In this document: positions 2,112-64,000 of the stretch, piece after piece
Layout of the letters: the number at the start of each line of letters is the position of its first letter
How positions within the stretch are numbered: the first letter of the stretch is position 1
IMG/VR virus record: IMGVR_UViG_3300044723_003200
Length of the DNA: 64,000 nucleotides
Direction: 5' to 3' (one strand)
From: an uncultured virus (IMG/VR IMGVR_UViG_3300044723_003200)
Taxonomy: Duplodnaviria; Heunggongvirae; Uroviricota; Caudoviricetes
Notes under the pieces: generated by a model
Database searches by the model: none
What the model was told of the DNA's origin: nothing
What the model saw: the letters and a program-made list of their open reading frames with translations, nothing else
Program-made: the position numbers and the translations under genes

Positions 2112-3629
2112 ATGAGATATGTAGGTTTTTCAGAGTTTTTTCATGACGCGAGTCTTGCCATCGTCAATCAAGACGGTTCGGTAGAATTTGCGTCCCAAGC
2201 AGAACGGTACAGTGGTCTGAAGATGGATCACTTGATACCCCCAGAGATGTGGTCGTTTGTAAATAAAGACGATCATGTCACCTATTACGAGGACGCAGAT
2301 CTTCGTAGGGAAAAGATGGGTGGTATGCGTACCTTCCAAAATAATCCAGATGTTGCTAGAAAGGCAAAACGAGGTTGGATTGATACCGCATATCCCATGC
2401 GGAACTCCCTTACCTTTGATACCTTTAACGAACATCACGAGAGTCACTGCGCCCTAGCATTTCTGACTCGTCCGTGGGAATCAAAAGAAGACACTGTCAT
2501 GGTGTCTGTTGACGGTTCTGGTGAACTAGAGTCTTTGGTCATCAAAGACCACAACTTCAAGACGATCAAACAAATACTGTGGCCTCAATCCTTGGGGTCT
2601 ATGTACGGGACAGTAACATCTGCTCTAGGATTCAAGGCATTAAGAGACGAATATATTGTCATGGGTCTGGCATCATATGGTCAAGTAGATAAGACTCTCT
2701 ATGACATCCTTCACAATATGTACTATTGGTTTGAAAGCGAGCATGGTCGTAATGTGAGGCAGATAGTAGACTTCGAGGGACACTGTATCGCGGAGAGTGC
2801 CTTGTCTGCAAAGTATGTTGACTATGAGAACAAGATTCTGAAACGAATCAAGGGTATCTCAGAAGAAGATGCCAGTGCAACTATACAGAAGTTCTTTGAG
2901 GTTGAAGTACTCAAGGTGATGAAGGAAGCGCGTAAGTACGGTTCCAAACTCGTCTACAGTGGCGGTTGTGCACAGAACGTGACCGCGAACTCTAAGATCT
3001 ACGAACTGTTCGATGACATGCATATCGCCATTGCACCAAATGATGCGGGTAACGCACTAGGGTGTGCCCTGTACTCGTGGCACAAGGCCACAGGCGGGGA
3101 CAATGTAAAGTGTACTCCATACCTTGGTCACAACATTGATCGTCCCATAGACCCCAAGGCAGTCGCTCAATACCTTGTTGATGTGAAAATATGTGGTGTT
3201 GCGAATGGTCGTGCTGAGTATGGGCCTCGCGCACTTGGTAATCGTTCTCTGTTGGCGGATGTACGGTATGATGTAAAAGACACCGTCAATATGATCAAAC
3301 GTAGACATAAGTTTAGACCCTTTGCACCCGCTATCCTTTCTGAGTACGCTGACGAGTATTTTGAAGGGCCTATGAACGAGTATATGCAGTATACTGCAAA
3401 GGCAAAACATGACTACTCATCGGTCACCCATGTAGACGGTACAGCGAGAGTGCAGTTGGTCAAACCCGATTGTGAGTCCGTCTTACGTCAAATTCTAGAG
3501 GAGTACTACGAGTTGACGGGTGTTCCTATGTTGTTGAACACATCTCTGAACATACGCAACAGACCGATGGTGAACACCATAGAAGATGCCGAAGAGTGGG
3601 AACGCAAGTATAACGTAAAGGTATTCTGA
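2112..3629 (+). CDS. Carbamoyltransferase (NodU/CmcH family)
   Basis: HDAS, ERYS, HHESH, VDGSGE, SGGCAQN, EYGPRALGNRS, FRPFAP, THVDGTARVQ, LLNTSLN. Confidence 0.93.
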   Translation: MRYVGFSEFFHDASLAIVNQDGSVEFASQAERYSGLKMDHLIPPEMWSFVNKDDHVTYYEDADLRREKMGGMRTFQNNPDVARKAKRGWIDTAYPMRNSLTFDTFNEHHESHCALAFLTRPWESKEDTVMVSVDGSGELESLVIKDHNFKTIKQILWPQSLGSMYGTVTSALGFKALRDEYIVMGLASYGQVDKTLYDILHNMYYWFESEHGRNVRQIVDFEGHCIAESALSAKYVDYENKILKRIKGISEEDASATIQKFFEVEVLKVMKEARKYGSKLVYSGGCAQNVTANSKIYELFDDMHIAIAPNDAGNALGCALYSWHKATGGDNVKCTPYLGHNIDRPIDPKAVAQYLVDVKICGVANGRAEYGPRALGNRSLLADVRYDVKDTVNMIKRRHKFRPFAPAILSEYADEYFEGPMNEYMQYTAKAKHDYSSVTHVDGTARVQLVKPDCESVLRQILEEYYELTGVPMLLNTSLNIRNRPMVNTIEDAEEWERKYNVKVF

Positions 3630-50754: not shown

Positions 50755-52227
50755 ATGGCGACTAATCCTCCGACAAAGACAACGATTCTGGATACGTTCA
50801 CCACCTTGGTGACGAACACAAATACCGTATCGTTAGACTTGGGTGCAACAGGACGTTTGAATACAAACGAAGATTCCTCTGCGGTTGCAGCAATCAACGA
50901 GCTGGAACTGGGTATTCGAGGTACTTCCAATAACCTTGTCGCCACTGATCTTGCAGACTTCACTGCGAATAACATCGTATCTGCGCTGAATGAACTTGAC
51001 AGTGACCTCCATGGATCTGGTGGTGGTAATGCCAAGGCAGACCTCACCACGAATGCAAAAGCAATCGTGGACGGTATCAACGAACTTGAAGTAGGTATTC
51101 GAGGAACGTCGAACAATCTGGTCGCAACTGATCTTGCAACGACTGCGAATGATCTTGTAACTGCTGTTAATGAGTTGGACTCTGACATTGGTGCAAGGCC
51201 TCATACCAATCTGACAACCACCGCAAAGACTCTGACTGCTGGTGTGAATGAACTTGACTCCGATATCGGTGTAAGACCTCACACCAACTTAACGACTACT
51301 GCGAAAACATTAACTGGTGCAGTCAATGAACTTGACGCATTACAGGGCAATGTCACGATGGGTACTACTGCATCTACTATTACAGGTGCGGTAAGAGAAC
51401 ATGACCTAGAACTAGGTACGATCACTTCCGGTGCAATGGGAACAAATGCATCTACAGTATCTACTGCCATTGCAGAACTGGATAGTGACCGTGATGTTCT
51501 TATTACTTTTGTTGAACCTAAACAGGCAATCAACACTACTGCAACAACTGTTGCTGACGCAATCAACGAACATGAAGCAGACATTGGTACGGTTGGAAAC
51601 CTGACAACTACTGCAACAAATCTTACTTCTGCTGTTAACGAACTTGATGCGGAACTAGGAACAATTACTGCTGGTGCGATGGGTACTACCGCATCAACCG
51701 TATCCGGTGCAATCTCAGAACTTGAAGTAGAGATTGACACACTCAATACTTTTGTTGAACCTACTCAATCATTGACCACCACCGCGACAACTCTTGCAGA
51801 TGCAATCAATGAGCATGATGCAGAGATTGGTGCGGCTTCACTAAATACTTCAGCAACGACTCTTCGTGGTGCAATCAATGAACTGCACACTGAAGTTGGA
51901 GATGCGATCAGTGGTGATAATCTTACTACGGGTAATATTGGTTCGTCTCTTAATCTACTAGATAGTGCAGTAGGTAATTTAGATAATCTGAATACAGATG
52001 GTTCTATCTCAAACAGAACAGATATTGTAAGAGCGGTTAACTCTCTTGCAGACGATATTGTACTACTAGACTCAGATGCGACACTGAGAGATAGTAGATT
52101 AGGTTCACTAAGTAGTTTAGACGCAGCTTTTGTTGGTTCCGAAAGAGATAATTTTGTCGCTGCATTAAACGCATTGAGAGCGGACATACCACTGATCTTT
52201 GATGAGAATGGAACACAACTTAACTAA
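50755..52227 (+). CDS. Fibre/whisker-like repeat protein
   Basis: Many ~23-aa repeats LTTTAxxLxxA(V/I)NEL(D/E)xxIG. Confidence 0.7.
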   Translation: MATNPPTKTTILDTFTTLVTNTNTVSLDLGATGRLNTNEDSSAVAAINELELGIRGTSNNLVATDLADFTANNIVSALNELDSDLHGSGGGNAKADLTTNAKAIVDGINELEVGIRGTSNNLVATDLATTANDLVTAVNELDSDIGARPHTNLTTTAKTLTAGVNELDSDIGVRPHTNLTTTAKTLTGAVNELDALQGNVTMGTTASTITGAVREHDLELGTITSGAMGTNASTVSTAIAELDSDRDVLITFVEPKQAINTTATTVADAINEHEADIGTVGNLTTTATNLTSAVNELDAELGTITAGAMGTTASTVSGAISELEVEIDTLNTFVEPTQSLTTTATTLADAINEHDAEIGAASLNTSATTLRGAINELHTEVGDAISGDNLTTGNIGSSLNLLDSAVGNLDNLNTDGSISNRTDIVRAVNSLADDIVLLDSDATLRDSRLGSLSSLDAAFVGSERDNFVAALNALRADIPLIFDENGTQLN

Positions 52228-52238
52228 TCGGAGAGAAC

Positions 52239-54257
52239 GTGACTGTTCCACTAAAACTAAGAGACAGTGCTGCACCGACAGAACTTCAGGTCTTTACATC
52301 TACTGAAGAGAACTATCTTGCGTATCAGGCTGGACTCCAACTAAGCACCGGTAGTGATGTGGCGGATCTGTATCTCACCGATACAGGCACAAACTACATT
52401 ATCGGTAGTTTCACAGATACGGCATACGATCAGGCTGTTGGTACTGGTGGTAATAATGTTGCTTTGACAACAACAACTACCACGACAAATGTGCGTCAAC
52501 GCCAAGGAACCGCCAGCACAAGTGGCAGTGATTTCCGCATACCTGTAAAACAAGTAATTCAGAGTAATCAATTAAAGATCCTAGAGATGAACTCTTCCGA
52601 TAGAGACACTCTTGTTGATCGTTTGATTTCTCGTATCTTTACTTCAGATTATCCAGGCTCATACAAGCTTGCGACATCTGCTCCGAGTGGTGATTATACA
52701 GAGTATCTGTCAAATGTGATGACAGATACCCGAACTGATGGGACATCTATTCAGTACAACATCTATCGTAGGAATGCAATGACCGCACCTACGAAGGTAT
52801 TGCCTTTCTCAATCAAAAGATCCTCTGGCGCAACGGGAACCTATCAGGGTCTTCAGTTGATGTCTGACGCTCAGGTGAAATATTCTCTTGGTCAGTTAGC
52901 CAAGAATCGTATTGCGTCCTCACAAACTGGGGTAGGTAATTATCGTATCTTCAGTTCTGCTGAAGGTAACCCAGCAGCAAATGGTTTGTCTGGTACTTGG
53001 GTCTCGAAAGGCACTGCAACTGACACTCGTCAACAGATAGTTGATGCAAACTATACTAGAACTCGTTCTTCAAACTACAACAGAACACGAACTTCTACGT
53101 ATACTCGTACCTCTACCAGAACTCGTTCTAGTAACTATGCTCAGGCCTATACAAGAATTCGTTCTAGTGCTTATACCCGAACAAGGTCGAGTAACTATGC
53201 CGGTAATTTTATCGGTGATTTCTTGGGTGACTACACTAGGACATCAACACGTACTCGTACTAGTACCTATACAAGAACCAGTACGCGAACACGAGCCAGT
53301 ACCTATACTGGAACGCTGAGTTATCTTGGTGACTTCATCGGAAACTTTATTGGTGACTTCATTGGTGACTATAGTCGTACCTTTGTAGGCAACTATTCGC
53401 GACTAATTGCAACTGACTACGCTCGCAACTTTACTCGTAACTTTTTTGGTGACTTTCTGGGCAACGCTGGCGCCAGTAACGCATACAGCAGAACATCTGG
53501 TGCTGAATATTACTGGGTGGTGGTTGAGTATCAAACCCTACAAGGTGATGGGTTTACTGTAGATAGTAGTTACTCTGTAGTTTATAACTTGAACGGCACT
53601 GCACGTTTGTTGTTTAGTGGTACTCAAAACACTACCAGTGGAACCGGCATTAACAGTGATGGTTCTTCTCACAGTATTTCAAGAGGAGCTTTAGTATCAA
53701 CGGAAACTTCTGGTGATCCTTTTATCGATGGTTCTGCAACAGTTAGTCGTTACTATCGCATCACCGCATCTGGTACATTCGACTATACACGGGCCTTTTC
53801 GCAAAACTACGCTCGTAACTTTACCGGAACCCGAACTTCTACTTATACACGAAATCGTATTGCATCATACACACGCACCAGCCTTCGAGACTCACTAAGG
53901 ACTTCTACGCGAATCTCTACACGAGAAGTCAACTACTCTCGCAACTTTGCTGGAAACTTTACTGGTGACTATTCTCGAAACTTTGCCGGAGACTTCCTTG
54001 GCAACTATACGAGATTGAGGATTAATGATTCGACAAGAAACTTTGCACGGAATTTTGTGGGTAATTACTCACGAGACTTTGCTGGCAACTACGTAGGGGA
54101 CTACTCTCGCAACTTTGCTGGTGACTACCTTGGAAACTATGCACGTAACTTTGCGGGTAACTATAATCGAACCTTTACGGGTAACTATGCAGGAGACACC
54201 ATAGGCTCCGGCAACGAAAACATTGAGACTTACACTCTCTATGTCAGAACTGCATAA
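52239..54257 (+). CDS. Tetrad-repeat fibre protein A with central 106-aa tip domain
   Basis: N-domain shared with next gene; [YFRS]x[RGS][TND] repeats at 53052-53465 and 53784-54197. Confidence 0.75.
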   Translation: MTVPLKLRDSAAPTELQVFTSTEENYLAYQAGLQLSTGSDVADLYLTDTGTNYIIGSFTDTAYDQAVGTGGNNVALTTTTTTTNVRQRQGTASTSGSDFRIPVKQVIQSNQLKILEMNSSDRDTLVDRLISRIFTSDYPGSYKLATSAPSGDYTEYLSNVMTDTRTDGTSIQYNIYRRNAMTAPTKVLPFSIKRSSGATGTYQGLQLMSDAQVKYSLGQLAKNRIASSQTGVGNYRIFSSAEGNPAANGLSGTWVSKGTATDTRQQIVDANYTRTRSSNYNRTRTSTYTRTSTRTRSSNYAQAYTRIRSSAYTRTRSSNYAGNFIGDFLGDYTRTSTRTRTSTYTRTSTRTRASTYTGTLSYLGDFIGNFIGDFIGDYSRTFVGNYSRLIATDYARNFTRNFFGDFLGNAGASNAYSRTSGAEYYWVVVEYQTLQGDGFTVDSSYSVVYNLNGTARLLFSGTQNTTSGTGINSDGSSHSISRGALVSTETSGDPFIDGSATVSRYYRITASGTFDYTRAFSQNYARNFTGTRTSTYTRNRIASYTRTSLRDSLRTSTRISTREVNYSRNFAGNFTGDYSRNFAGDFLGNYTRLRINDSTRNFARNFVGNYSRDFAGNYVGDYSRNFAGDYLGNYARNFAGNYNRTFTGNYAGDTIGSGNENIETYTLYVRTA

Positions 54258-54265
54258 ATAAAGTT

Positions 54266-56671
54266 ATGGGATCTACTACACTAAAACTTGAAGGTACTAA
54301 TGGTGACCTCAAGGAGATTACAACCACAGAAGAGAACTATCTCGCGTATCAAGCGGGATTGCATCTCTCTGTCTTGGACTCTAGTGATGTCGGTACGATC
54401 ACTCAGGTCAGCACCAATAATGCCCTAGTTGGCCAGTTCGTCAACACCGCATTCGATGACGGTGTTGGTACTCACGAGTTCGCAGGTGGTAATGTGCCTG
54501 TCGTACAGACAACAACCTCTTTGTATCAAAGAGAGGGTGTCACTGACTTTGCGGGTGACTCTGCTGCATTCCGATATCCTATTGAGTTTGTGGACAATGG
54601 TGGAACACCAGAAATACACGAACTAGATTCTTCTGAGACTGATACTCTAAGTGATCGACTCATTGGTCGTATTGCAACATCTGAATATCCGGGCACATAT
54701 CGATTAGGATCGTCTTCGCCTGGCGGTACATATTCTGTATACAAGTCAAATGTCTTTGAGGATACTCTTGAGACCGGAGTATCGGGCACATCATATAATA
54801 TATACGTAAAATCATCGATGACAGCTCCCACAACGATCAGGCCAGTAGCGGTCAAACGATCTAGTGGATTGACCGGAACCTTCCAAGGTCTCCAAGAGAT
54901 GTCCGATGCCGAGATTCGTTACAGTTTTGGATCTCGTGTACAAACACGTATGATGAATGGTAGTGCTGGTGTCGGAACATATCAGTTGCGTACCAACATC
55001 CAAGGCGCCCCTACTGATGCGGGGACTTGGTCAGCACGAGGGACTGCTACCGATACTCGGCGCAATCTGGTAAACACTGACTACTCCGCCACATATACTC
55101 GAACTCGTGTAACAGACTCGACCAGAACTTCGTTAACGGACTTCTCAAGAGATGTTGATTATGTAGGTAACTACAGTCGTGACTTTGCTGGTAACTTCAT
55201 CGGTGACTTTACCGGAGATTTTACTGGTAACTTTATAGGTGACTTTACTGGAGATTATTCAAGAAGTTTTCTGGGTGACTATACTGGTAACTACTCACGA
55301 AACTTTGTCGGTGACTACGTGGGGGACTACTCAAGAAGTTTCCTTGGAAACTATGTCGGCAACTATGCACGTGCATTCTCTGCGGTATACTCAAGAACAC
55401 GAGTAACTACCTATACCGGAGATTTCATCGGTAACTATGTCGGCAACTATGCTCGCAACTTCTCGGCTGCATATACCAGAGATAGGGTCACCACCTTTAC
55501 TGGAGACTTCCTTGGCGACTATACTGGTAACTACGCCAGAGCCTTTTCTGCGAACTACCAAAGAACTCGTGCAACAGATTACACAGGTAACTTTTTAGGT
55601 GATTATACTGGTAACTATGCTCGTGCATTCGCTGCGAACTACCAACGCACCCGAGCCACAAACTACCAGAGAACTTCAACAAGGGATCGTCAGACAAACT
55701 ACGCACGTGCCTTTACTCGTTTGCGGATTGCAATATCCAACAGGCAGTATACTCGTTTACGTATTGCAATATCCAACAGGCAGTATACTCGTTTACGTAT
55801 TGCGATATCCACTAGAATCTCAACCCGAAATTCTATTAACGTCTACTCCTATATTGGTAACTTCACGGGCAACTTCACGGGTAACTATACTGGTGACTAT
55901 TTAAGAAACTTCACAGGTAACTTTGAAGGTAACTACTTAAGAAACTTCACGGGTAACTATACTGGTAACTATGCACGTAACTACCTTGGAAACTTTATCG
56001 GAAACTTTATCGGTGACTATACAGGTAACTTCCTAGGCGATTACACTGGTAACTATGCTCGTAACTTCAGCGCAAACTATCAAAGGACTCGGGCCACAGT
56101 CTTTACGGGCAACTTCCTTGGCGATTATACAGGCAACTATGCACGTAACTTCAGCGCAAACTACCAACGCACACGTGTAACCAATTTTGATGGTAACTTT
56201 ATTGGAGACTATACCGGAAACTACGCTCGTAACTTTAGTGCTGATTACACTCGTAACCGTCTCACCGATTTTGCTGGCGACTTTGCGGGGGATTACACAG
56301 GCAACTATTCTCGTGACTTTAGTGCTGATTATCAAAGGACGAGGAACTCAGCATATAGCGCAAACTATCAGAGAACACGAACCTCTATATACAGTGCGAA
56401 CTATCAGAGGACACGTATAAGTACTTATACCAGAACATCTACACGGGACTCTCTTAACAACTTTACCCGTATATCGACCCGTGATAATATTGTGGTTCGT
56501 TCAAGTGCTTACAGTAGGACGAGGGTTAGCCTTACCACATTTACCGGAGACTTTGTGGGTAACTTTGTTGGTGATTTTGTCGGTAACTACCTTGGAAACT
56601 ATGTTGGCACAACGATTGACTCAGGAACGTCAACTATAACAACCTTTACATTATATCAAAGGACAGCCTAA
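54266..56671 (+). CDS. Tetrad-repeat fibre protein B
   Basis: Paralog of previous gene (EENYLAYQAGL, YPG.Y.L, QGLQ.MSDA, GTATDTR, TLY.RTA); repeats at 55082-56611. Confidence 0.75.
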   Translation: MGSTTLKLEGTNGDLKEITTTEENYLAYQAGLHLSVLDSSDVGTITQVSTNNALVGQFVNTAFDDGVGTHEFAGGNVPVVQTTTSLYQREGVTDFAGDSAAFRYPIEFVDNGGTPEIHELDSSETDTLSDRLIGRIATSEYPGTYRLGSSSPGGTYSVYKSNVFEDTLETGVSGTSYNIYVKSSMTAPTTIRPVAVKRSSGLTGTFQGLQEMSDAEIRYSFGSRVQTRMMNGSAGVGTYQLRTNIQGAPTDAGTWSARGTATDTRRNLVNTDYSATYTRTRVTDSTRTSLTDFSRDVDYVGNYSRDFAGNFIGDFTGDFTGNFIGDFTGDYSRSFLGDYTGNYSRNFVGDYVGDYSRSFLGNYVGNYARAFSAVYSRTRVTTYTGDFIGNYVGNYARNFSAAYTRDRVTTFTGDFLGDYTGNYARAFSANYQRTRATDYTGNFLGDYTGNYARAFAANYQRTRATNYQRTSTRDRQTNYARAFTRLRIAISNRQYTRLRIAISNRQYTRLRIAISTRISTRNSINVYSYIGNFTGNFTGNYTGDYLRNFTGNFEGNYLRNFTGNYTGNYARNYLGNFIGNFIGDYTGNFLGDYTGNYARNFSANYQRTRATVFTGNFLGDYTGNYARNFSANYQRTRVTNFDGNFIGDYTGNYARNFSADYTRNRLTDFAGDFAGDYTGNYSRDFSADYQRTRNSAYSANYQRTRTSIYSANYQRTRISTYTRTSTRDSLNNFTRISTRDNIVVRSSAYSRTRVSLTTFTGDFVGNFVGDFVGNYLGNYVGTTIDSGTSTITTFTLYQRTA
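55715..55810. repeat. 36-bp tandem repeat (about 2.7 copies) encoding TRLRIAISNRQY
   Basis: ACTCGTTTACGTATTGCAATATCCAACAGGCAGTAT near-exact copies. Confidence 0.9.
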
Positions 56672-56711
56672 ACTTTGATATACATATTTGTGAATGTCGA
56701 TGGAGAATATA

Positions 56712-57164
56712 ATGGCAGACAGAAAATGGTTAGATAATGCTTTTTGGGAGACTCCTCAAAAAGAACTCTTGAATGCTATCAGTGAGACCACTGAGAACAA
56801 TCGCGAGGTTCGTCAAGTACACAAGATCCCCAAGACCAACGAAGACGGCACCGAGAACGAAATGTTCAAAGAAGTGCTTGAGTATCTTGGTGAGGATGTG
56901 ATTGATGCGTCCAGCAAGAAACGCCTGGAAAAAAAGCAGGCCGAAGCTGAGATGGAGAAGGAGAAACAACTCGAACAAGAACGAGCACGTAAACTCGAAA
57001 AACTGTTTGAGTACAAACTGGAAACCTTTGAAGTCCCAGAAATCAAGGAATCCAAGAATCGTCTGTTGAAGTCTAAACTCAGGCGTTCTAAGTCTATTCC
57101 TGAAGTCAACCTATACGCCATGCTGATCGTGAAGGACACTATTGATAATGCAGAATCAGAGTAA
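56712..57164 (+). CDS. Hypothetical charged helical protein (possible fibre chaperone)
   Basis: GGAG RBS; LF..KL..FE..EIK.S.N...K..LR.SK motif. Confidence 0.6.
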   Translation: MADRKWLDNAFWETPQKELLNAISETTENNREVRQVHKIPKTNEDGTENEMFKEVLEYLGEDVIDASSKKRLEKKQAEAEMEKEKQLEQERARKLEKLFEYKLETFEVPEIKESKNRLLKSKLRRSKSIPEVNLYAMLIVKDTIDNAESE

Positions 57165-57894
57165 AGGATTCGTAATTGTTGCATCTAACAATGTAAACTT
57201 TTACGTCTACGCAGTCAACCTCATTGAGTCCATCAAGGACTGGTATCCTGAAGCACAAATCACTCTTGTAACCGAAGAGCGTTTCATCGATGAACGTGCG
57301 GATGAGGCTGATAACATCATCTTCTGTGATAACCATTATAGGGCTAAACTCTGGGGTATGGCGCAATCTCCATATGATATCACGATGTATGTTGACGCTG
57401 ACATGGACTGTGAGCACGAAGATATTGCAAAGGTCTGGGATGAGATGAAAGACTATGATATGGTCTTTCATGAGTTGACTGAAGAGCGTGAAAAGTTCTA
57501 TGCTATCCGAGAGTTTCGATACAAGGGTAGGATGGAAAAATATACTCTGTGTGGTGGCGTTTGTTTATATCGTAGTAGTAATCCTCTGGTCATGGAATTC
57601 ATGCGAGAGTGGTTTGAACTGTTCAACAAACAAATGAACAACATATGGGAACCAGAGGGGTTTGACAAAAAGCAGTGGAACAATGATCTGAAACACTTCG
57701 ATCAGACAACGCTGTGGTGGCTGACTGAAAAGGTAGATAAATATAAAGATCTCAAGATTGGTATCTTTGAGGATGACATTCGATGGAATTACTTTACTCA
57801 ATATCAATACGAGAATCTACACTCTAAAGAAGGCAAACCACCAATCCTGAGACACTACTCTGGATCACTGCATAAGGATCGACTCTTGGTATGA
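57148..57894 (+). CDS. GT-A fold glycosyltransferase
   Basis: GFVIVAS, RAKL.....SPYD.T.YVDAD, GGV..Y, DQ..LW, RWN, I.HY. Confidence 0.78.
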   Translation: MQNQSKGFVIVASNNVNFYVYAVNLIESIKDWYPEAQITLVTEERFIDERADEADNIIFCDNHYRAKLWGMAQSPYDITMYVDADMDCEHEDIAKVWDEMKDYDMVFHELTEEREKFYAIREFRYKGRMEKYTLCGGVCLYRSSNPLVMEFMREWFELFNKQMNNIWEPEGFDKKQWNNDLKHFDQTTLWWLTEKVDKYKDLKIGIFEDDIRWNYFTQYQYENLHSKEGKPPILRHYSGSLHKDRLLV

Positions 57895-58565
57895 AAGATG
57901 TTCCGATTGAAAATAAAGATGTTCTGGTTGCACTGGACAACTTTCTTTGGTATTATGAAAACAAGGATATCGTAGCAAAGACTCTGAGACTGCATGGCGA
58001 ACCTGATAAACGGGAACACTACATATCTGCGAAATATCGGGACTCTGTCATTGCAGAAGATGAACGTCATGAGGGATTCCCCGAAGATTGCTATGCGTAT
58101 GCTTTGAAGTCAGATAGGTTGCACTTTGATGATGAACACAATACATCACCATTAGCAGCCAGTTTCTACTCACGGTACAGTCAGTACAATGAAGAATTGT
58201 GCACCCTGTTATCAACACGTAACAATGCACTGACGCAACTATACCCGCCAGGCGGATACATCTCTTGGCACAACAATGCGAATGCCTCTGCCTACAACAT
58301 CATTTTCTCATGGTCTGAGACCGGAGAAGGAAACTTTCGATATGTTGATGGACATACCGGCAGAGAAGTCGTGATGCAGGATAAGAAAGGGTGGCAGTGC
58401 AAAGCAGGATATTTCGGAGCCTATGGGGAACCTTGGTACAATAGAGTCTATCATGCTGCGGAAACTGACTGTTGGAGGATCACTGTGTCCTACATGTTTG
58501 ATCGTAGTGACATGGCCTCTGGTCTCCAAGAGGACATTATAGAGGAAATAATGTCCGATTTCTAG
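57891..58565 (+). CDS. Putative 2OG-Fe(II)/cupin-fold oxygenase
   Basis: YPPGGYISWHNN, YHAA, RITVS resemble the Hx(D/N)...H...RxS arrangement of a double-stranded beta-helix. Confidence 0.6.
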   Translation: MKDVPIENKDVLVALDNFLWYYENKDIVAKTLRLHGEPDKREHYISAKYRDSVIAEDERHEGFPEDCYAYALKSDRLHFDDEHNTSPLAASFYSRYSQYNEELCTLLSTRNNALTQLYPPGGYISWHNNANASAYNIIFSWSETGEGNFRYVDGHTGREVVMQDKKGWQCKAGYFGAYGEPWYNRVYHAAETDCWRITVSYMFDRSDMASGLQEDIIEEIMSDF

Positions 58566-59011: not shown

Positions 59012-62000
59012 ATGGCTGAGAAGATCATTGTAAAGAAGGTAGTAGTCGGAACACCCATAAAACGGGTAACGGCAGGTGCTTTTGCTATCTCAAACTTGGG
59101 TGGTGTTGATGTAACTGCTACGGAATCCGATGGTTCTATTCTTGCTTACAATCAAGTAAGCGGAAAATACGAGGTAACTAATCTCCGCACTGATGCAAAT
59201 ATCACTGCCGAGTTTGACAGCGAACAAAATAAATATACTTTCGGCTTGACAAATACTTCTTTTACTGGTAGTATTATCCCTGATAGCAACGAAGCATACG
59301 ACCTTGGTAGTTCATCCAACAAATGGCGTGACCTCTATCTCAGTGGAGATACAATCGTCCTTGGATCAATATCCTTAAAAGACAGTGGTGGTCAATTAGT
59401 CTTTGTTGACAGTGATGGAAACAAGACAGGTCTTGGTCTAAGCCTCATAACCAACAACACCAGTATTCTATCTCTGGATAGTGACACGGGTGTATTTACA
59501 TTCAACGACTCTGACATTGCACGAACAGATGTCAACGAAGTATTTCACGCTGGCCTGACAGTCAACGGCGGCGCAACTGTCGATAGTGCGACCATCACAA
59601 CTCTCGCCAACACAACTTTAATTGGTAGTCAAGCCACTCTTGATAGTGCCAATATCGGTACGCTTCGGGTTACAGGTAATACTGTGCTTGATGGCAATCT
59701 GACTATCAGTGGTACTCAGACGATAATCAATACTGAGACTATCAATCTAGCCGACAACACGATCATTCTCAACTCTAATGCAACCGGCACTCCCACAGAA
59801 GATGCCGGTATTGAGATTGAACGGGGTGACCTCGCAAATGTATCCATTCTATGGGATGAGGGGGAGAAACACTGGACACTAGGCAGCGAAAATTTAGTAA
59901 CAACTGGTAAACTTCTCTTCGGTAATGTTTATGATTCAGAGGGGGCTCTTCCGTCCGCATCTGTCTATCATGGTATGTACGCACATGTGCACGCTACTGG
60001 TCGTGGATACTTTGCCCATGCGGGTGACTGGCACAAACTGATTGATTCGGACACCACAACAAGACAACAGGTCTATACTCTGTCCTCTGAAGTCGCTGAC
60101 ATCACCGATGGTACAATCACTACTCTTTATAACAGTAACTTATCTGGTGGTCAGGCCACGTTTGATAGTGCACACTCTACGAATCTTACGGCAGCCACGG
60201 CTACCCTAGACTCTGCAACGGCAACTAATCTTGCAAGTACTACACTTACGGGTGGCACTGCCACATTTGACTCCGCGACAGTAACAAACCTAGCAACAAC
60301 CGAACTGACTGGATCTCAAGCAACCTTTGACTCTGCGACAGTAACAAACCTAGCAACAACCGAACTGACTGGATCTCAAGCAACCTTTGACTCTGCGACG
60401 ATCACAAACATCAGATTCGACAATATTGATGCACAGACAACGGCAACGATTAGAAACATATTCAGTGCTTCGGGTGATCTGTCATATGATAGTGCAACTG
60501 GTCAGTTCTCCTTTGATGTTGAAACAGTATACACTAAGGCTAACTTCGATAGTGATTTGGGTGATGCGAATACAGGACAACTACCTGAAGGCACCAACTT
60601 ATATTATACTACCGCACGAGCAGACAGTGACTTCGATGTTAGACTTGCAACAAAAACAACATCGGATGTTGCAGAGGGCACAAATCTCTACTACACTCAG
60701 GTAAGGTTCGACTCTGCGTTTGGTGATAAGACCACTACGGACTTGACCGAAGGTACGAACCTTTACTATACCACTGCACGATTCGATGCTGCACTTGCTA
60801 CTAAAACAACAGCGGATGTTGCCGAACATAATAGTAATCTTTACTATACTACTGCACGAGCAGATAGTGACGCAAAGGCATCATTACTTGTAAACGATAC
60901 GGGTGGTGATGGGTCTCTGACCTATGACAGTGCTACAGGTGTCTTTACCTATACTGGGCCCAGTGCGGCAGAGGTAAGGGCACATTTGAGTGCTAGTGGA
61001 GATTTATCCTACAATAGTTCTACTGGTGTATTCAGTGTTGATATAGAGGATGTCTATACTCAGGCAAACTTTGATAGTGACTTCCTGAAGAGACTAGAAT
61101 CACAGATTGATAGTGCGGGTATTACCACATTAACGAATACTAATGCAACTATCACAAGCCTGACCGGAAGTCAAGCAACTTTTGACTCTGCAAACATTAC
61201 CTCTCTAGGTGCAGTAGCAGGTGTTGATGCGACAACCACATCAACAATCCGTGGATTGTTCAGTTCATCCGGTGACTTAACCTATAACAGTGGAACAGGT
61301 CAGTTCTCCTTTGATGTAGAAGATGTCTACACCAAGGCAAACTTTGACTCTGATCTGGGAGATGCCAACACAGGGCAACTACCTGAAGGGAGTAATCTCT
61401 ACTATACGGACGCAAGAGCAAGAAATGCAATCGGTCTGTCTGATGTTGGTGGGGATGGTTCACTTACATACGATTCGGCAACGGGTAGATTTACCTACAC
61501 CGGCCCGAGTGCTGCGGAAGTAAGAGCACACTTAACTGCAAACAAAGGACTCTCTGTATCTAATGGAGAGTTCAATATTGACTCAGCAAATGTCAGAGGG
61601 ATGTTCTCTGCAAGTGGAAGTCTAAGTTATAACTCATCTACAGGTGCTTTCTCCTATACGGATTCAGATAGAACGGCATCTCAGATAAAGGGATTATTCT
61701 CTGCGACTGATGCTGGTGGTGATGGAAGTTTCTCATATAGTGATGGGGTCTTTACTTACACAGGGCCTTCTGCTTCAGAAGCAAGAGCGCATTTCTCTGG
61801 TGGAACTGGCGTCACAATCACTGATGGTTCGATTGCGATTGGTCAGTCTGTTGGAACGACAGACAATGTAACCTTCGCACAAACCACCATGGATTCAGCC
61901 ATTGTTGATGGTGTTAACTTTAATGTTCTAACATCAAGACATACAAATGCTGCTGGAACATTGTATTTTGACTCTGATCATCAAAAGGGTCTATCACTTG

Positions 62001-64000
62001 TTCTTGATACTCAGAATAATCCGAATCCAGATGTAACTCTTAATATTGGTCAAGAGATATTCCTCTATGTCCATAACTTAACTGGTGCTCAGATTGACAA
62101 CGGTCAAGCAGTCTATATCTCTGGAACTGCACACGGTAAACACCCTCAAGTATCTCTTGCGAGAGCGGATGCGTCTGGAACTGCTCAACCTACTGGTCTT
62201 GCGACTATGGATATTCCAGATGGCGCACACGGTTGGGTAACTCGTTATGGTATCGTCCGTGATGTAAACACTGGTGGTCTGACTGCTGGTTCGACATTAT
62301 ATCTTTCCGCTGATTCTGCTGGTGAGTGGACAACAACAGAAGTCACTGTGGATACTGGTTATCCATATCATATTGGTCGTATTCTAACCGCTGACTCAAC
62401 CGCTGGCACAATCCTTGTAGATGGTTTCAGTGAACACTACGAATATCTGCGTATTGAAGATAGACTGAAAGTCTCCGGTAGACTTGAAGCTGATTCGGCA
62501 TCACTTCTGAATGTTCAGTTTGATATTACAACCTTTGATTCACATCAACCATATAGTGAAGGTCTGTTATATTACGATAATGCACACAAGACACTGAACT
62601 ATAATGATGACATCACTGGTATGGTTCACGAGATTGGTCTCCAAGAACACCAGCGTGTATTCAACAATAGTGGCGCAACCATTAAGAAAGGTAATGCACT
62701 ATACTTTAGTGGTAACTACACATCAGGCGATATTGACGTTCCGACTGTTGGTCTTGCAGATGCAACAGATGTAAACGCATATAACGCTCAAGGTATTGCT
62801 GCTCAAGATATTCCAAACAACTCTTATGGTCACTGTTTGATTGCTGGTCAGTTGACTAATGTTAATACTGCACACTTGAGTGACGGAACTAACTTCTTCG
62901 TGTCCGTGACTACACCTGGCTCACACCAGAATGCATCTCCGACATATCCAAACTTCCCTATGTGTTTAGGTTGGGTTGTTAAAACTGGTGATTCAGACAA
63001 TGGTATCTTACTTGTCAATCAACAGAATCACTCTGTTCGTTCTTTCCGTGTTCAAACTTCTGCACATATTGGTACAGACTTACAGGTTGATGGTAACTTA
63101 ACGATTTTAGGTAGTCAGACCACTGTAGGTACATCTAATGTAACTCAGGGTGCGCCATTCTATCGTCTTAATGAAGGTGATGCGATTGGTGAAGCAGGAA
63201 CGACATTTACTGGTTCTGGCCTTGACGATGCGTTCTTTGCTGGTCACTTTACTGGAACATCTTCACAAACCTACTATGTCAAGATTGATGGTGTAGGAAC
63301 TGGTGGTGGTGGCGTTGATACTTTTGCGGTTGCTCTTGGTAGTGATAGTGAGTTTGCATCTCCTGTTCTTACAAAACAGAATATTACAGGTGACGCACAA
63401 CTTATTCACTCTGCGGATAATATCTCCGTTGAGTTTGGTGCGACTACAGGCCACGATAGTGGTGATAGATGGTCTGGTACTGCTTCTCCTGTTAATGTAG
63501 ATACTGGTTTCTTCACAAACCGAAACACTGGAACAAGTGGTGTCGGTTATACCCATATGGGTCTATGGTTTGATGTCACTGACGAGAAATGGAAACTCGT
63601 AGACGAATATGACTCAACACCTACAGGAACAATTAACACTGCGGATTCCTCATTCAGTCTTGCGACTCTAGTTGCAGATACGTTTGAAGGTAGTCTGATT
63701 GGTGCGGTAACAGGTAATGCTCAAACTGCTTCTGCTCTTGCAAGTGGTCAAAACTTCTCCTTAACAGGTGATATCACTGCATCTGCTGTATCCTTTGATG
63801 GAACAGGTGCGGTTCAATTGACAACCGCATACAACCCTGGCTCTATTGTTAACGCAGACATCAATGCTGCTGCTGCGATTGCGGATTCTAAACTCGCAAC
63901 CATTAGTACTGCGGGTAAGGTAAACAACTCTGCGACCACTGCTACTGATGCAAATACTGGTTCTGCGATTGTAACACGTGATGCATCTGGTAACTTTGCG
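59012..64000 (+). CDS. Large tail fibre protein, 3' end beyond window (>=1663 codons; missing from ORF track)
   Basis: AAGGAAAG RBS, MAEKIIVKKVVVG...; IIPDSNEAYDLGSSSNKWRDLYL, repeated EGTNLYYT, YDSATG.F.YTGPS; frame spot-checked open at 60002, 61022, 62042, 63002 and 63962. Confidence 0.85.
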   Translation, partial: MAEKIIVKKVVVGTPIKRVTAGAFAISNLGGVDVTATESDGSILAYNQVSGKYEVTNLRTDANITAEFDSEQNKYTFGLTNTSFTGSIIPDSNEAYDLGSSSNKWRDLYLSGDTIVLGSISLKDSGGQLVFVDSDGNKTGLGLSLITNNTSILSLDSDTGVFTFNDSDIARTDVNEVFHAGLTVNGGATVDSATITTLANTTLIGSQATLDSANIGTLRVTGNTVLDGNLTISGTQTIINTETINLADNTIILNSNATGTPTEDAGIEIERGDLANVSILWDEGEKHWTLGSENLVTTGKLLFGNVYDSEGALPSASVYHGMYAHVHATGRGYFAHAGDWHKLIDSDTTTRQQVYTLSSEVADITDGTITTLYNSNLSGGQATFDSAHSTNLTAATATLDSATATNLASTTLTGGTATFDSATVTNLATTELTGSQATFDSATVTNLATTELTGSQATFDSATITNIRFDNIDAQTTATIRNIFSASGDLSYDSATGQFSFDVETVYTKANFDSDLGDANTGQLPEGTNLYYTTARADSDFDVRLATKTTSDVAEGTNLYYTQVRFDSAFGDKTTTDLTEGTNLYYTTARFDAALATKTTADVAEHNSNLYYTTARADSDAKASLLVNDTGGDGSLTYDSATGVFTYTGPSAAEVRAHLSASGDLSYNSSTGVFSVDIEDVYTQANFDSDFLKRLESQIDSAGITTLTNTNATITSLTGSQATFDSANITSLGAVAGVDATTTSTIRGLFSSSGDLTYNSGTGQFSFDVEDVYTKANFDSDLGDANTGQLPEGSNLYYTDARARNAIGLSDVGGDGSLTYDSATGRFTYTGPSAAEVRAHLTANKGLSVSNGEFNIDSANVRGMFSASGSLSYNSSTGAFSYTDSDRTASQIKGLFSATDAGGDGSFSYSDGVFTYTGPSASEARAHFSGGTGVTITDGSIAIGQSVGTTDNVTFAQTTMDSAIVDGVNFNVLTSRHTNAAGTLYFDSDHQKGLSLVLDTQNNPNPDVTLNIGQEIFLYVHNLTGAQIDNGQAVYISGTAHGKHPQVSLARADASGTAQPTGLATMDIPDGAHGWVTRYGIVRDVNTGGLTAGSTLYLSADSAGEWTTTEVTVDTGYPYHIGRILTADSTAGTILVDGFSEHYEYLRIEDRLKVSGRLEADSASLLNVQFDITTFDSHQPYSEGLLYYDNAHKTLNYNDDITGMVHEIGLQEHQRVFNNSGATIKKGNALYFSGNYTSGDIDVPTVGLADATDVNAYNAQGIAAQDIPNNSYGHCLIAGQLTNVNTAHLSDGTNFFVSVTTPGSHQNASPTYPNFPMCLGWVVKTGDSDNGILLVNQQNHSVRSFRVQTSAHIGTDLQVDGNLTILGSQTTVGTSNVTQGAPFYRLNEGDAIGEAGTTFTGSGLDDAFFAGHFTGTSSQTYYVKIDGVGTGGGGVDTFAVALGSDSEFASPVLTKQNITGDAQLIHSADNISVEFGATTGHDSGDRWSGTASPVNVDTGFFTNRNTGTSGVGYTHMGLWFDVTDEKWKLVDEYDSTPTGTINTADSSFSLATLVADTFEGSLIGAVTGNAQTASALASGQNFSLTGDITASAVSFDGTGAVQLTTAYNPGSIVNADINAAAAIADSKLATISTAGKVNNSATTATDANTGSAIVTRDASGNFA
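60266..60399. repeat. 60-bp tandem duplication encoding FDSATVTNLATTELTGSQAT
   Basis: About 2.2 near-identical copies in frame within the tail fibre. Confidence 0.9.

Follow-up and report, generated by a model that had tools for sequence, protein, structure and literature searches.

The window analysed here is a stretch of 64,000 nucleotides from an uncultured virus of the Caudoviricetes (IMG/VR record IMGVR_UViG_3300044723_003200). On its plus strand, an open reading frame (ORF) of 801 residues, hereinafter the target, follows directly on a tandem paralog of 672 residues. The target contains an N-terminal globular domain (N-domain), a 510-residue repeat region built from four-residue units (tetrads), and a C-terminal cap (Table 1). 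The initial annotation of this DNA, made from the letters alone, had divided the repeat region into 6 tetrads, VD, 57 tetrads, YS, 57 tetrads, TT and 6 tetrads, and our parse of residues 273-782 (55082-56611) reproduces this division exactly. The two halves of the region mirror each other, this architecture is conserved among relatives, and the residues of one half depend on those of the other in a register-specific manner. The repeat of the target most probably folds back within one chain into an antiparallel ribbon of two strands whose length can be tuned, and the target would be a fibre-type structural protein of an uncultured marine T4-like myophage.

A mirror-symmetric tetrad repeat

The consensus of the 126 tetrads is [Y55 F42 R17 S11]-x-[G51 R43 A14 T10]-[N50 D33 T18]. 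The 510 repeat residues are drawn from 14 amino acids; His, Lys, Cys, Met, Trp and Pro are absent, and there is a single Glu. Each arm carries one array of three three-tetrad units, and Tandem Repeats Finder (TRF) output, the pair list and mirror arithmetic place the two arrays (residues 483-518 and 537-572) at exact mirror positions. The DNA repeats with periods corresponding to 12, 16 and 28 residues in different stretches, the basic unit being four residues. The repeat region contains no inverted DNA repeat, and the symmetry is therefore not a nucleic-acid palindrome.

Table 1. Features of the target and of its tandem paralog in the window.
Feature	Position	Strand	Remark
Target, putative hairpin fibre protein, ORF of 801 residues plus stop	54266..56671	+	An identical protein is encoded on L003, a viral contig locus
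N-terminal globular domain, residues 1-272 (EENYLAYQAGL ... GTW..GTATDTR)	54266..55081	+	Non-repetitive; 331 library clusters match at E<=0.001
Outer stem of outgoing arm, 6 tetrads, residues 273-296	55082..55153	+	Partner, last 6 tetrads
Two-residue break VD, residues 297-298	55154..55159	+	Mirrored by TT; mirrored two-residue breaks recur in homologs
Outgoing arm, 57 tetrads, residues 299-526	55160..55843	+	Gly-type tetrads basal, Arg/Thr-type towards the tip
Array of 3 x 3 tetrads (xTRL RIAI SNRQ), residues 483-518	55712..55819	+	TRF period 36 at 55714-55811; family D6
Mirror centre YS, putative turn, residues 527-528	55844..55849	+	In relatives the geometric midpoint lies on Gly-rich loops or a tip domain
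Returning arm, 57 tetrads, residues 529-756	55850..56533	+	De novo scan, 274-521 with 533-780
Array of 3 x 3 tetrads (FTGN YTGD YLRN and variants), residues 537-572	55874..55981	+	TRF period 36 at 55871-55972
Two-residue break TT, residues 757-758	56534..56539	+	Mirror of VD; parse
Outer stem of returning arm, 6 tetrads, residues 759-782	56540..56611	+	Pair list
C-terminal cap, 19 residues, 783-801 (TIDSGTSTITTFTLYQRTA)	56612..56668	+	Conserved ..TYTLYxRxA; regular-expression match in relatives
Tandem paralog, 672 residues, directly upstream of target	52239..54257	+	N-domains of paralog and target 44.5% identical
Paralog N-domain	52239-53051	+	
Paralog outgoing arm	53052-53465	+	[22]-LS-[12]
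Paralog tip domain, 106 residues	53466-53783	+	
Paralog returning arm	53784-54197	+	[12]-VN-[22]
Paralog cap	54198-54254	+	

When the chain is folded back antiparallel, the target yields 56 position-3 pairs with 22 Gly on one arm and 23 on the other, and Gly never faces Gly (9.0 expected). The partners of Gly are Arg (22), Ala (13), Thr (8), Asn (1) and Val (1), while Arg at position 3 faces only Gly, Ser and Arg. Among the 57 position-1 pairs, 16 Arg stand opposite 13 Phe and 3 Tyr. These counts agree with the initial annotation, which had read from them a code of size and Arg-aromatic complementarity; all of them fall on one residue anti-diagonal, i + j = mirror sum minus 3. On the diagonal +1 the same 16 Arg stand opposite 14 Tyr and 2 Phe, so the preference for Phe is register-specific. 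In the pair list of whole tetrads, [R/S]xxx is opposite FxGx in 24 of 28 cases, and YxRx is opposite YxGx 13 times, FxAx or FxSx 8 times and another YxRx in 4 cases.

Within the target alone, a Gly-Gly count of zero returns every 7 tetrads (d = 54, 55, 61, 62, 68, 69), because a GGGRART super-repeat is present in both arms. This recurrence makes the Gly-Gly count from the target alone unconvincing; with the homologs added, the avoidance is convincing.

Equal arms and mirrored breaks in homologs

Homologs were collected by tblastn against 50,697 phage records, by a scan of viral contigs and by a HMMER search with the N-domain. With the N-domain as query, tblastn returned one record, Phage C48C1, in which the domain heads a hypothetical protein of 3347 residues. 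The contig scan gave 65 related loci, and HMMER gave 331 clusters (50% identity) at E<=0.001. The 65 loci, 150 listed of the 331 clusters and C48C1 were parsed with a four-phase hidden Markov model trained on the tetrads of the target.

Equal arm lengths, named in the initial annotation as something to look for in homologs collected through the N-domain, are found over a range of 5 to 104 tetrads, with two-residue breaks at mirrored places. Relatives whose N-domains are 73-84% identical differ greatly in arm length, and the outgoing arm always equals the returning arm. With tetrad numbers in brackets and the intervening residues given as letters or as a count, relatives read [6]-VD-[98]-8-[98]-TT-[6], [6]-VD-[104]-8-[104]-TT-[6], [14]-TD-[57]-7-[57]-TT-[14], [66]-8-[66], [69]-8-[69] and [6]-VD-[62]-GN-[3]-8-[3]-LY-[62]-TT-[6]. 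Distant relatives read [19]-19-[19], [7]-RD-[5]-AD-[1]-12-[2]-AN-[5]-RN-[7] and [16]-VS-[11]-AS-[4]-87-[4]-LA-[11]-VA-[16]. Midpoints calculated solely from the outer ends of the parsed tract fall on Gly-rich loops, among them YAGGGKGG/NAYNYTG, VRTLGGSG/GGVYYY and RTIGSGS/GQTYNY (the slash marks the midpoint).

The symmetry was also scored from two anchors that lie outside the repeat, namely the motif W..G.A..TR at the end of the N-domain and YTLY in the cap. Both anchors are present in 125 of the 185 distinct sequences, and phase-coherent pairs were counted at 161 offsets. The best offset is exactly 0 in 45 of these 125 proteins, and the runner-up offset is best in 5. Phase coherence at offset 0 is complete in several members (416/416, 440/440, 284/284, 136/136 in the paralog and 124/124 pairs). 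By regular expression, the cap motif is kept in 155 of the 185 distinct sequences and missing from 30.

Two relatives of 445 and 436 residues (L046 3154-4488 and L047) carry five outgoing NYAGPT hexapeptides between two 5-tetrad stems and five VNYLGExxGA decapeptides on the returning side, so that the copy number equals that of the outgoing side while the unit length differs.

Register-specific dependence between the two arms

A log-odds pair potential was trained on 18 distant members, with the close relatives of the target and both window proteins excluded. With this potential, the target scores +76 at the mirror register; of the 33 tetrad-shifted registers the next best score +14 and +11, and 30 are negative. 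Similarly, the paralog scores +60 at the mirror register against +13 for its next best, and L012, L020, L027 and L011 each have one positive peak, at the mirror register. Against shuffled tetrads of the second arm, the target has z 7.4 and the paralog z 6.6, and none of 1000 shuffles reaches the observed score. Both comparisons, with other registers and with shuffled tetrads, had been put forward in the initial annotation, and both single out the register that it proposed. A scan of all anti-diagonals that uses no anchors pairs residues 274-521 with 533-780 at a score of 75.5, the next best being 25.9. In a held-out set of 103 proteins scored at 123 offsets, the best offset is -1 in 25; among the 34 held-out proteins that score at least 10, 23 have their peak at -1 and 29 lie no more than 3 offsets away.

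The avoidance of Gly opposite Gly extends to the family. In 29 phase-coherent proteins, 25 Gly-Gly pairs are observed against 188 expected at the register of the initial annotation, 53 against 167 one tetrad further out, and 109 against 207 at symmetric tetrad pairing, with far registers at expectation. It is seen with arm lengths of 57, 62, 69, 98 and 104 tetrads, and also in distant members that have no 7-tetrad period. The constant register of the avoidance over such varied arm lengths indicates that the phase of the super-repeat is locked to the tip.

Anti-diagonal dependence is present as anticipated: calculated between residue classes with tetrad phase as the condition, it is limited to offsets from -7 to +1 relative to the mirror, and all other offsets are at background. 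Per pair, the values for the distant set are 0.229 at -1, 0.161 at -3, 0.148 at -5 and 0.128 at +1, compared with 0.05-0.09 at even offsets and beyond 8 residues. The pair tables bear out the complementarity of size and of Arg with aromatic rings: in the distant set (observed/expected), Gly-Gly (21/85) and Arg-Arg (18/64) are depleted, while Arg-Gly (128/79) and Ser-Gly (76/34) are enriched; Tyr-Arg is at 131/72, Arg-Phe at 58/25 and Arg-Tyr at 2/23.

Giant and multi-stem relatives

The 3347-residue protein of C48C1 (L001 8989-19032) looks like one giant nested hairpin at the level of its sequence. Specifically, the scan pairs residues 864-1295 with 1371-1802 around a 72-residue domain, 580-853 with 2128-2401, and 267-330 with 3263-3326. 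When tract lengths are added up, almost unbroken tetrads make up an outgoing arm of ~1031 residues, and the tetrad tracts on the way back total ~1046, the returning arm being interrupted by several globular domains. Within the same protein, a segment of about 70 residues (RHRSYLYYSTDTSTNQQFFEPRVDD...) is exactly duplicated.

A further subfamily (P0122, P0128, P0054 and P0142) has three stems, nested and non-crossing, and seems to fold as a three-way junction: its first and last ~14 tetrads would form a base stem from which two branches arise. Linkers that recur are G, TPDx and D[TAGS]/EN, and the stems score modestly (13-25). The presence of several centres within a single chain implies that at least those stems are intrachain. 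One branch bears a domain of 90-150 residues. Other three-stem candidates are P0058, P0080 and the upstream genes of L012, L017, L020 and others.

Predicted structure of the base

The 460-residue relative L038 was modelled with AlphaFold2 from 135 sequences. Its N-domain (residues 1-270) and C-terminal end (438-458) have a predicted local distance difference test score (pLDDT) mostly above 90, and the strand homologous to the cap reaches 95-98. By the secondary-structure ranges of the model, strands 253-271 and 438-458 adjoin the arms, and their end residues sum to 711, the register of mirror minus 1. The earlier suggestion that the chain leaves and re-enters a globular base fits this model, in which both base strands are confidently predicted.

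In a Foldseek search of the L038 model against the PDB, there was no match at E<=0.001. The five best structural matches of its residues 41-460 are all MABP or beta-prism domains of MACPF-type pore formers: 8b6v_A (Z 8.2, root-mean-square deviation 3.4, 121 aligned), 2qp2_A (Z 7.5), 3tow_A (Z 6.6), 6sb1_A (Z 5.3) and 6u23_A (Z 3.9). These Z values are in the range that the tool commonly gives for unrelated models, the identity is 7-10%, and the likeness of the modelled N-domain to MABP or beta-prism is weak. The MABP domain is known for membrane binding. A complex prediction with three copies of residues 428-627 scored 0.00 in two runs made without controls and weighs neither way.

Gene context and database searches

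The gene for the target is located inside a baseplate and fibre module, the location that bears on a fibre or whisker function. Genes for the baseplate tube cap, the hub and lysozyme, and wedge subunits lie upstream of the fibre pair, and some neighbouring genes match PHROGs for tail fibres and for LtfC-like assembly. The wedge protein shares 39% identity with its counterpart in C48C1, about 33% with those in myophages of Pelagibacter and Methylophilales, and about 32% with those in cyanophages. Of 67 sources (the window and 66 related loci), 37 have paralog and target as a tandem pair, and the genes downstream of the pair are syntenic in 44-49 related loci.

Searches with the target returned sub-threshold noise in Pfam (Alpha-amy_C_pro at E 0.004, and YfkB), a glycine-zipper match far under the cut-off in NCBIfam, and weak PHROG matches to families of unknown function and to one tail-fibre family (E 4e-4). 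Among PDB chain sequences, neither phmmer with the target nor a profile of 135 members found a match at E<=1; one unrelated chain appeared at E 1.3. Neighbours in the Atlas are all labelled 'hypothetical protein' of viruses. No near-identical DNA was found in the phage collection, the record nearest to the window carries no copy of the N-domain, and no description of the family was found in the literature. The S-RIM2 'structural protein' (L002 1423-7161, 1912 residues) was considered as a relative and rejected: its arrangement, [11]-23-[16], is not a mirror, and it has no N-domain. Its tetrads, [VL]TG[ND], are free of aromatics and are the source of tblastn matches to 63 Synechococcus phage records.

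Other genes of the window stand beside the fibre pair. On the plus strand at 50755-52227 is a 490-residue protein with about ten repeats A[IV]NEL[DE]..[IL]G, probably helical, which matches the tail-fibre family phrog_25848 at E 4e-14. Positions 56694-58565 (+) hold ORFs of 156, 250 and 224 residues that match no family and are syntenic with the fibre pair in 47-49 loci; the first of these, rich in Lys and Glu, is a candidate assembly factor. At 59012-64000 (+), a giant ORF that resembles a fibre gene, longer than 1663 residues and open at the window end, carries DSAT.TNL and EGTNLYYT.AR repeats and gave no PHROG match at E<=1e-5.

Discussion

We propose that the ~270-residue N-terminal domain and the last 19 residues of the target form one globular base, from which the tetrad repeat, [Y/F/R/S]-x-[G/R/A/T]-[N/D/T], would run out, turn at YS and run back. 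Residue i would lie antiparallel to about residue 1054-i or 1052-i (1-based). The two candidate registers are mirror minus 1, with position 1 opposite position 3, and mirror minus 3, with position 1 opposite 1 and 3 opposite 3. In such a ribbon, a tetrad with Gly at position 3 would be set against an Arg, Ala, Thr or Ser tetrad, [R/S]xxx against FxGx, and YxRx against YxGx, FxAx or YxRx, so that a small residue would meet a large one and Arg would meet an aromatic ring, possibly in a cation-pi contact. Irregularities such as two-residue breaks and local tandem arrays would be tolerated only when mirrored on the other arm, and length would therefore change only in matched steps. Paired as a two-stranded beta-ribbon, the arms would measure about 84 nm if fully extended at 3.3 Å per residue; the same arithmetic gives about 46 nm for the paralog and 25 nm for a 19-tetrad relative. 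The protein probably serves as an adsorption fibre or whisker whose reach would be set by the number of tetrads, and the 106-residue tip domain of the paralog may be a distal binding head, which the target does not have.

Several observations weigh against a paired beta-ribbon in a fibre protein. AlphaFold2 gave no confident model of the arms: the mean pLDDT of the target is 33.8 (16 sequences), and the arms of L038 are below 50. Gly, Asn and Asp are poor formers of beta-strands by established propensities, and they occupy about half of positions 3 and 4. The 29 proteins of the Gly-Gly counts and the training set of the pair tables and the potential had been preselected as phase-coherent at offset 0. 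In the two-anchor test, 80 of 125 proteins peak elsewhere than at offset 0, and in the held-out set 78 of 103 have a best offset other than -1; the majority of them contain inserted domains or more than one stem, or consist of tetrads that a model trained on the target handles badly. Cutting out large inserted domains before the register test brought no gain (24 mirror-register peaks compared with 25). L040 and L055 are near-identical to the training member L038, and L059 and P0006 share the architecture of L044 and are 63-64% identical to L038, so these four cannot count as independent members of the held-out set. That the dependence is limited to odd offsets is partly due to the spacing of the informative positions 1 and 3, which are two residues apart, and alone is no proof of same-face beta pairing. 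Mirrored co-changes in one close pair (L028/L029) number 3, with about 3 expected. Finally, no isolate with virion proteomics was found, and the C48C1 protein is annotated as hypothetical and named in no paper that we found.

It is unlikely that the pairing, still antiparallel, joins two extended chains arranged head to tail, with the 'tip' at the middle of a rod twice as long. Positional dependence is blind to the difference between intrachain and interchain contacts, and a swapped base is compatible with the AlphaFold2 model of the monomer. The centre of the target, SINV-YS-YIGN, is no obvious turn sequence, and some relatives have 36 unbroken tetrads and no loop (L037), but the centre in most relatives is a Gly-rich loop of 7-19 residues or a globular domain. 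In addition, single chains contain two or three stems with different centres, one of them closed by 8 residues (P0054 330-378/387-435), and one dyad between two chains is unable to yield multiple stems. Phage fibres are polar and attached by one end, which also counts against an interchain rod.

Less likely still is a chain that runs one way, with the tetrads forming a parallel beta-solenoid or a triple beta-helix, or lying disordered and prion-like. The composition in Tyr, Phe, Gly, Asn, Asp, Ser, Thr and Arg resembles that of low-complexity, turn-rich repeats, and the arms lack a confident fold in AlphaFold2, as would suit such a chain; known shafts are parallel trimers (PMC5537660). However, a one-way chain needs neither equal halves, mirrored breaks, a midpoint centred on a loop nor anti-diagonal dependence, and all four are present. 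The residues per coil are not constant, as they would be in a solenoid, the DNA repeat periods being not of one coil length, and the matched halves do not suit the single direction of a parallel shaft. In the confident part of the L038 model, moreover, the C-terminal end is predicted to be back at the N-domain.

It is extremely improbable that there is no structural pairing at all and that the symmetry stems from a tandem duplication of [2 residues + 57 tetrads] combined with the 7-tetrad super-repeat: the position-3 strings of both arms are identical in parallel register at tetrads 17-41, Gly-Gly falls to zero every 7 tetrads, Arg is opposite an aromatic residue in most registers, and direct DNA repeats of 60-73% identity link both arms, but a duplication would give 22-2-12 / 22-2-12 where the paralog has 22-2-12 / 12-2-22, would leave equal arms over 5-104 tetrads unexplained, and stands against an avoidance of Gly-Gly at constant register in arms whose lengths (57, 62, 69, 98 and 104) are not 7-multiples apart, a potential learned on other proteins that selects one register of 33, and the lack of inverted DNA repeats. 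The Gly and Arg statistics as an artefact of direct duplication and the 7-tetrad period were rejected for the same reason, since homolog architectures and the out-of-sample potential contradict it.

If the intrachain ribbon is correct, it would be a new fibrous fold, a fold-back ribbon of nearly any length, whereas the shafts compared below are parallel except for the short iron-bound gp37 needle. It would also be a rare instance in which the register of a protein-protein interface is legible from sequence, and in a large unannotated family (331 clusters) reach, tip domain and branching would become legible in the same way. How two arms expand in step would be an evolutionary puzzle. For design, the code suggests a route to rods of defined length, and the absence of Cys, Lys, His, Met, Trp and Pro from the arms would make cross-linking and labelling clean.

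We regard it as an even call whether the family represents, more broadly, a new class of fibrous proteins that behaves like nucleic-acid secondary structure, in which a four-residue code zips a chain onto itself and yields digital length, capped hairpins and junctions. According to tetrad count, stems in such a class would, if extended, reach lengths between about 7 nm and about 0.3 micrometre; there would be swappable caps, 'beads' set into the returning strand and three-way junctions, and phages would tune fibre reach by matched expansions of both arms.

Comparison with known fibres

In T4 gp37, the chains run out to a distal head and back and form a six-stranded antiparallel trimer needle (PMC9659904) of about 150 by 25 Å (PMC3004832), in which Gly beside Phe is required for core packing and seven iron ions are bound on His residues (PMC6957217). 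Like this needle, the present proteins would have an out-and-back antiparallel chain with a distal head at the turn, here by sequence comparison, in a fibre of a T4-like phage; the paralog and many relatives have a tip domain at the centre. Unlike the trimeric needle, the target has no His among the 510 residues of its arms and no sequence similarity to gp37. In the family, arm length ranges from 20 residues to about 1030, up to 20-fold or more beyond the needle, and the repeat is strictly one of tetrads that follow a pairing code.

T4 gp5C, gp12 and gp34 are described in PMC5537660 and PMC3004832 as repetitive beta-rich fibre proteins with globular domains between; in these triple beta-helix shafts the chains go one way, their strands lie almost at right angles to the axis, and the repeat of gp5C is an octapeptide. 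The present family resembles these shafts as a repetitive phage fibre type with globular domains, and differs from them in that each chain has two mirror-matched halves and a repeat unit of four residues. We found this building principle described for no other fibre.

As an analogy only, the family is comparable to nucleic-acid hairpins, in that a self-complementary sequence would set the register, stems are matched, and relatives appear to have nested stems and three-way junctions. Unlike such hairpins, the chain is protein, and its code is statistical, a preference for matching size and for Arg with aromatic rings, not one-to-one.

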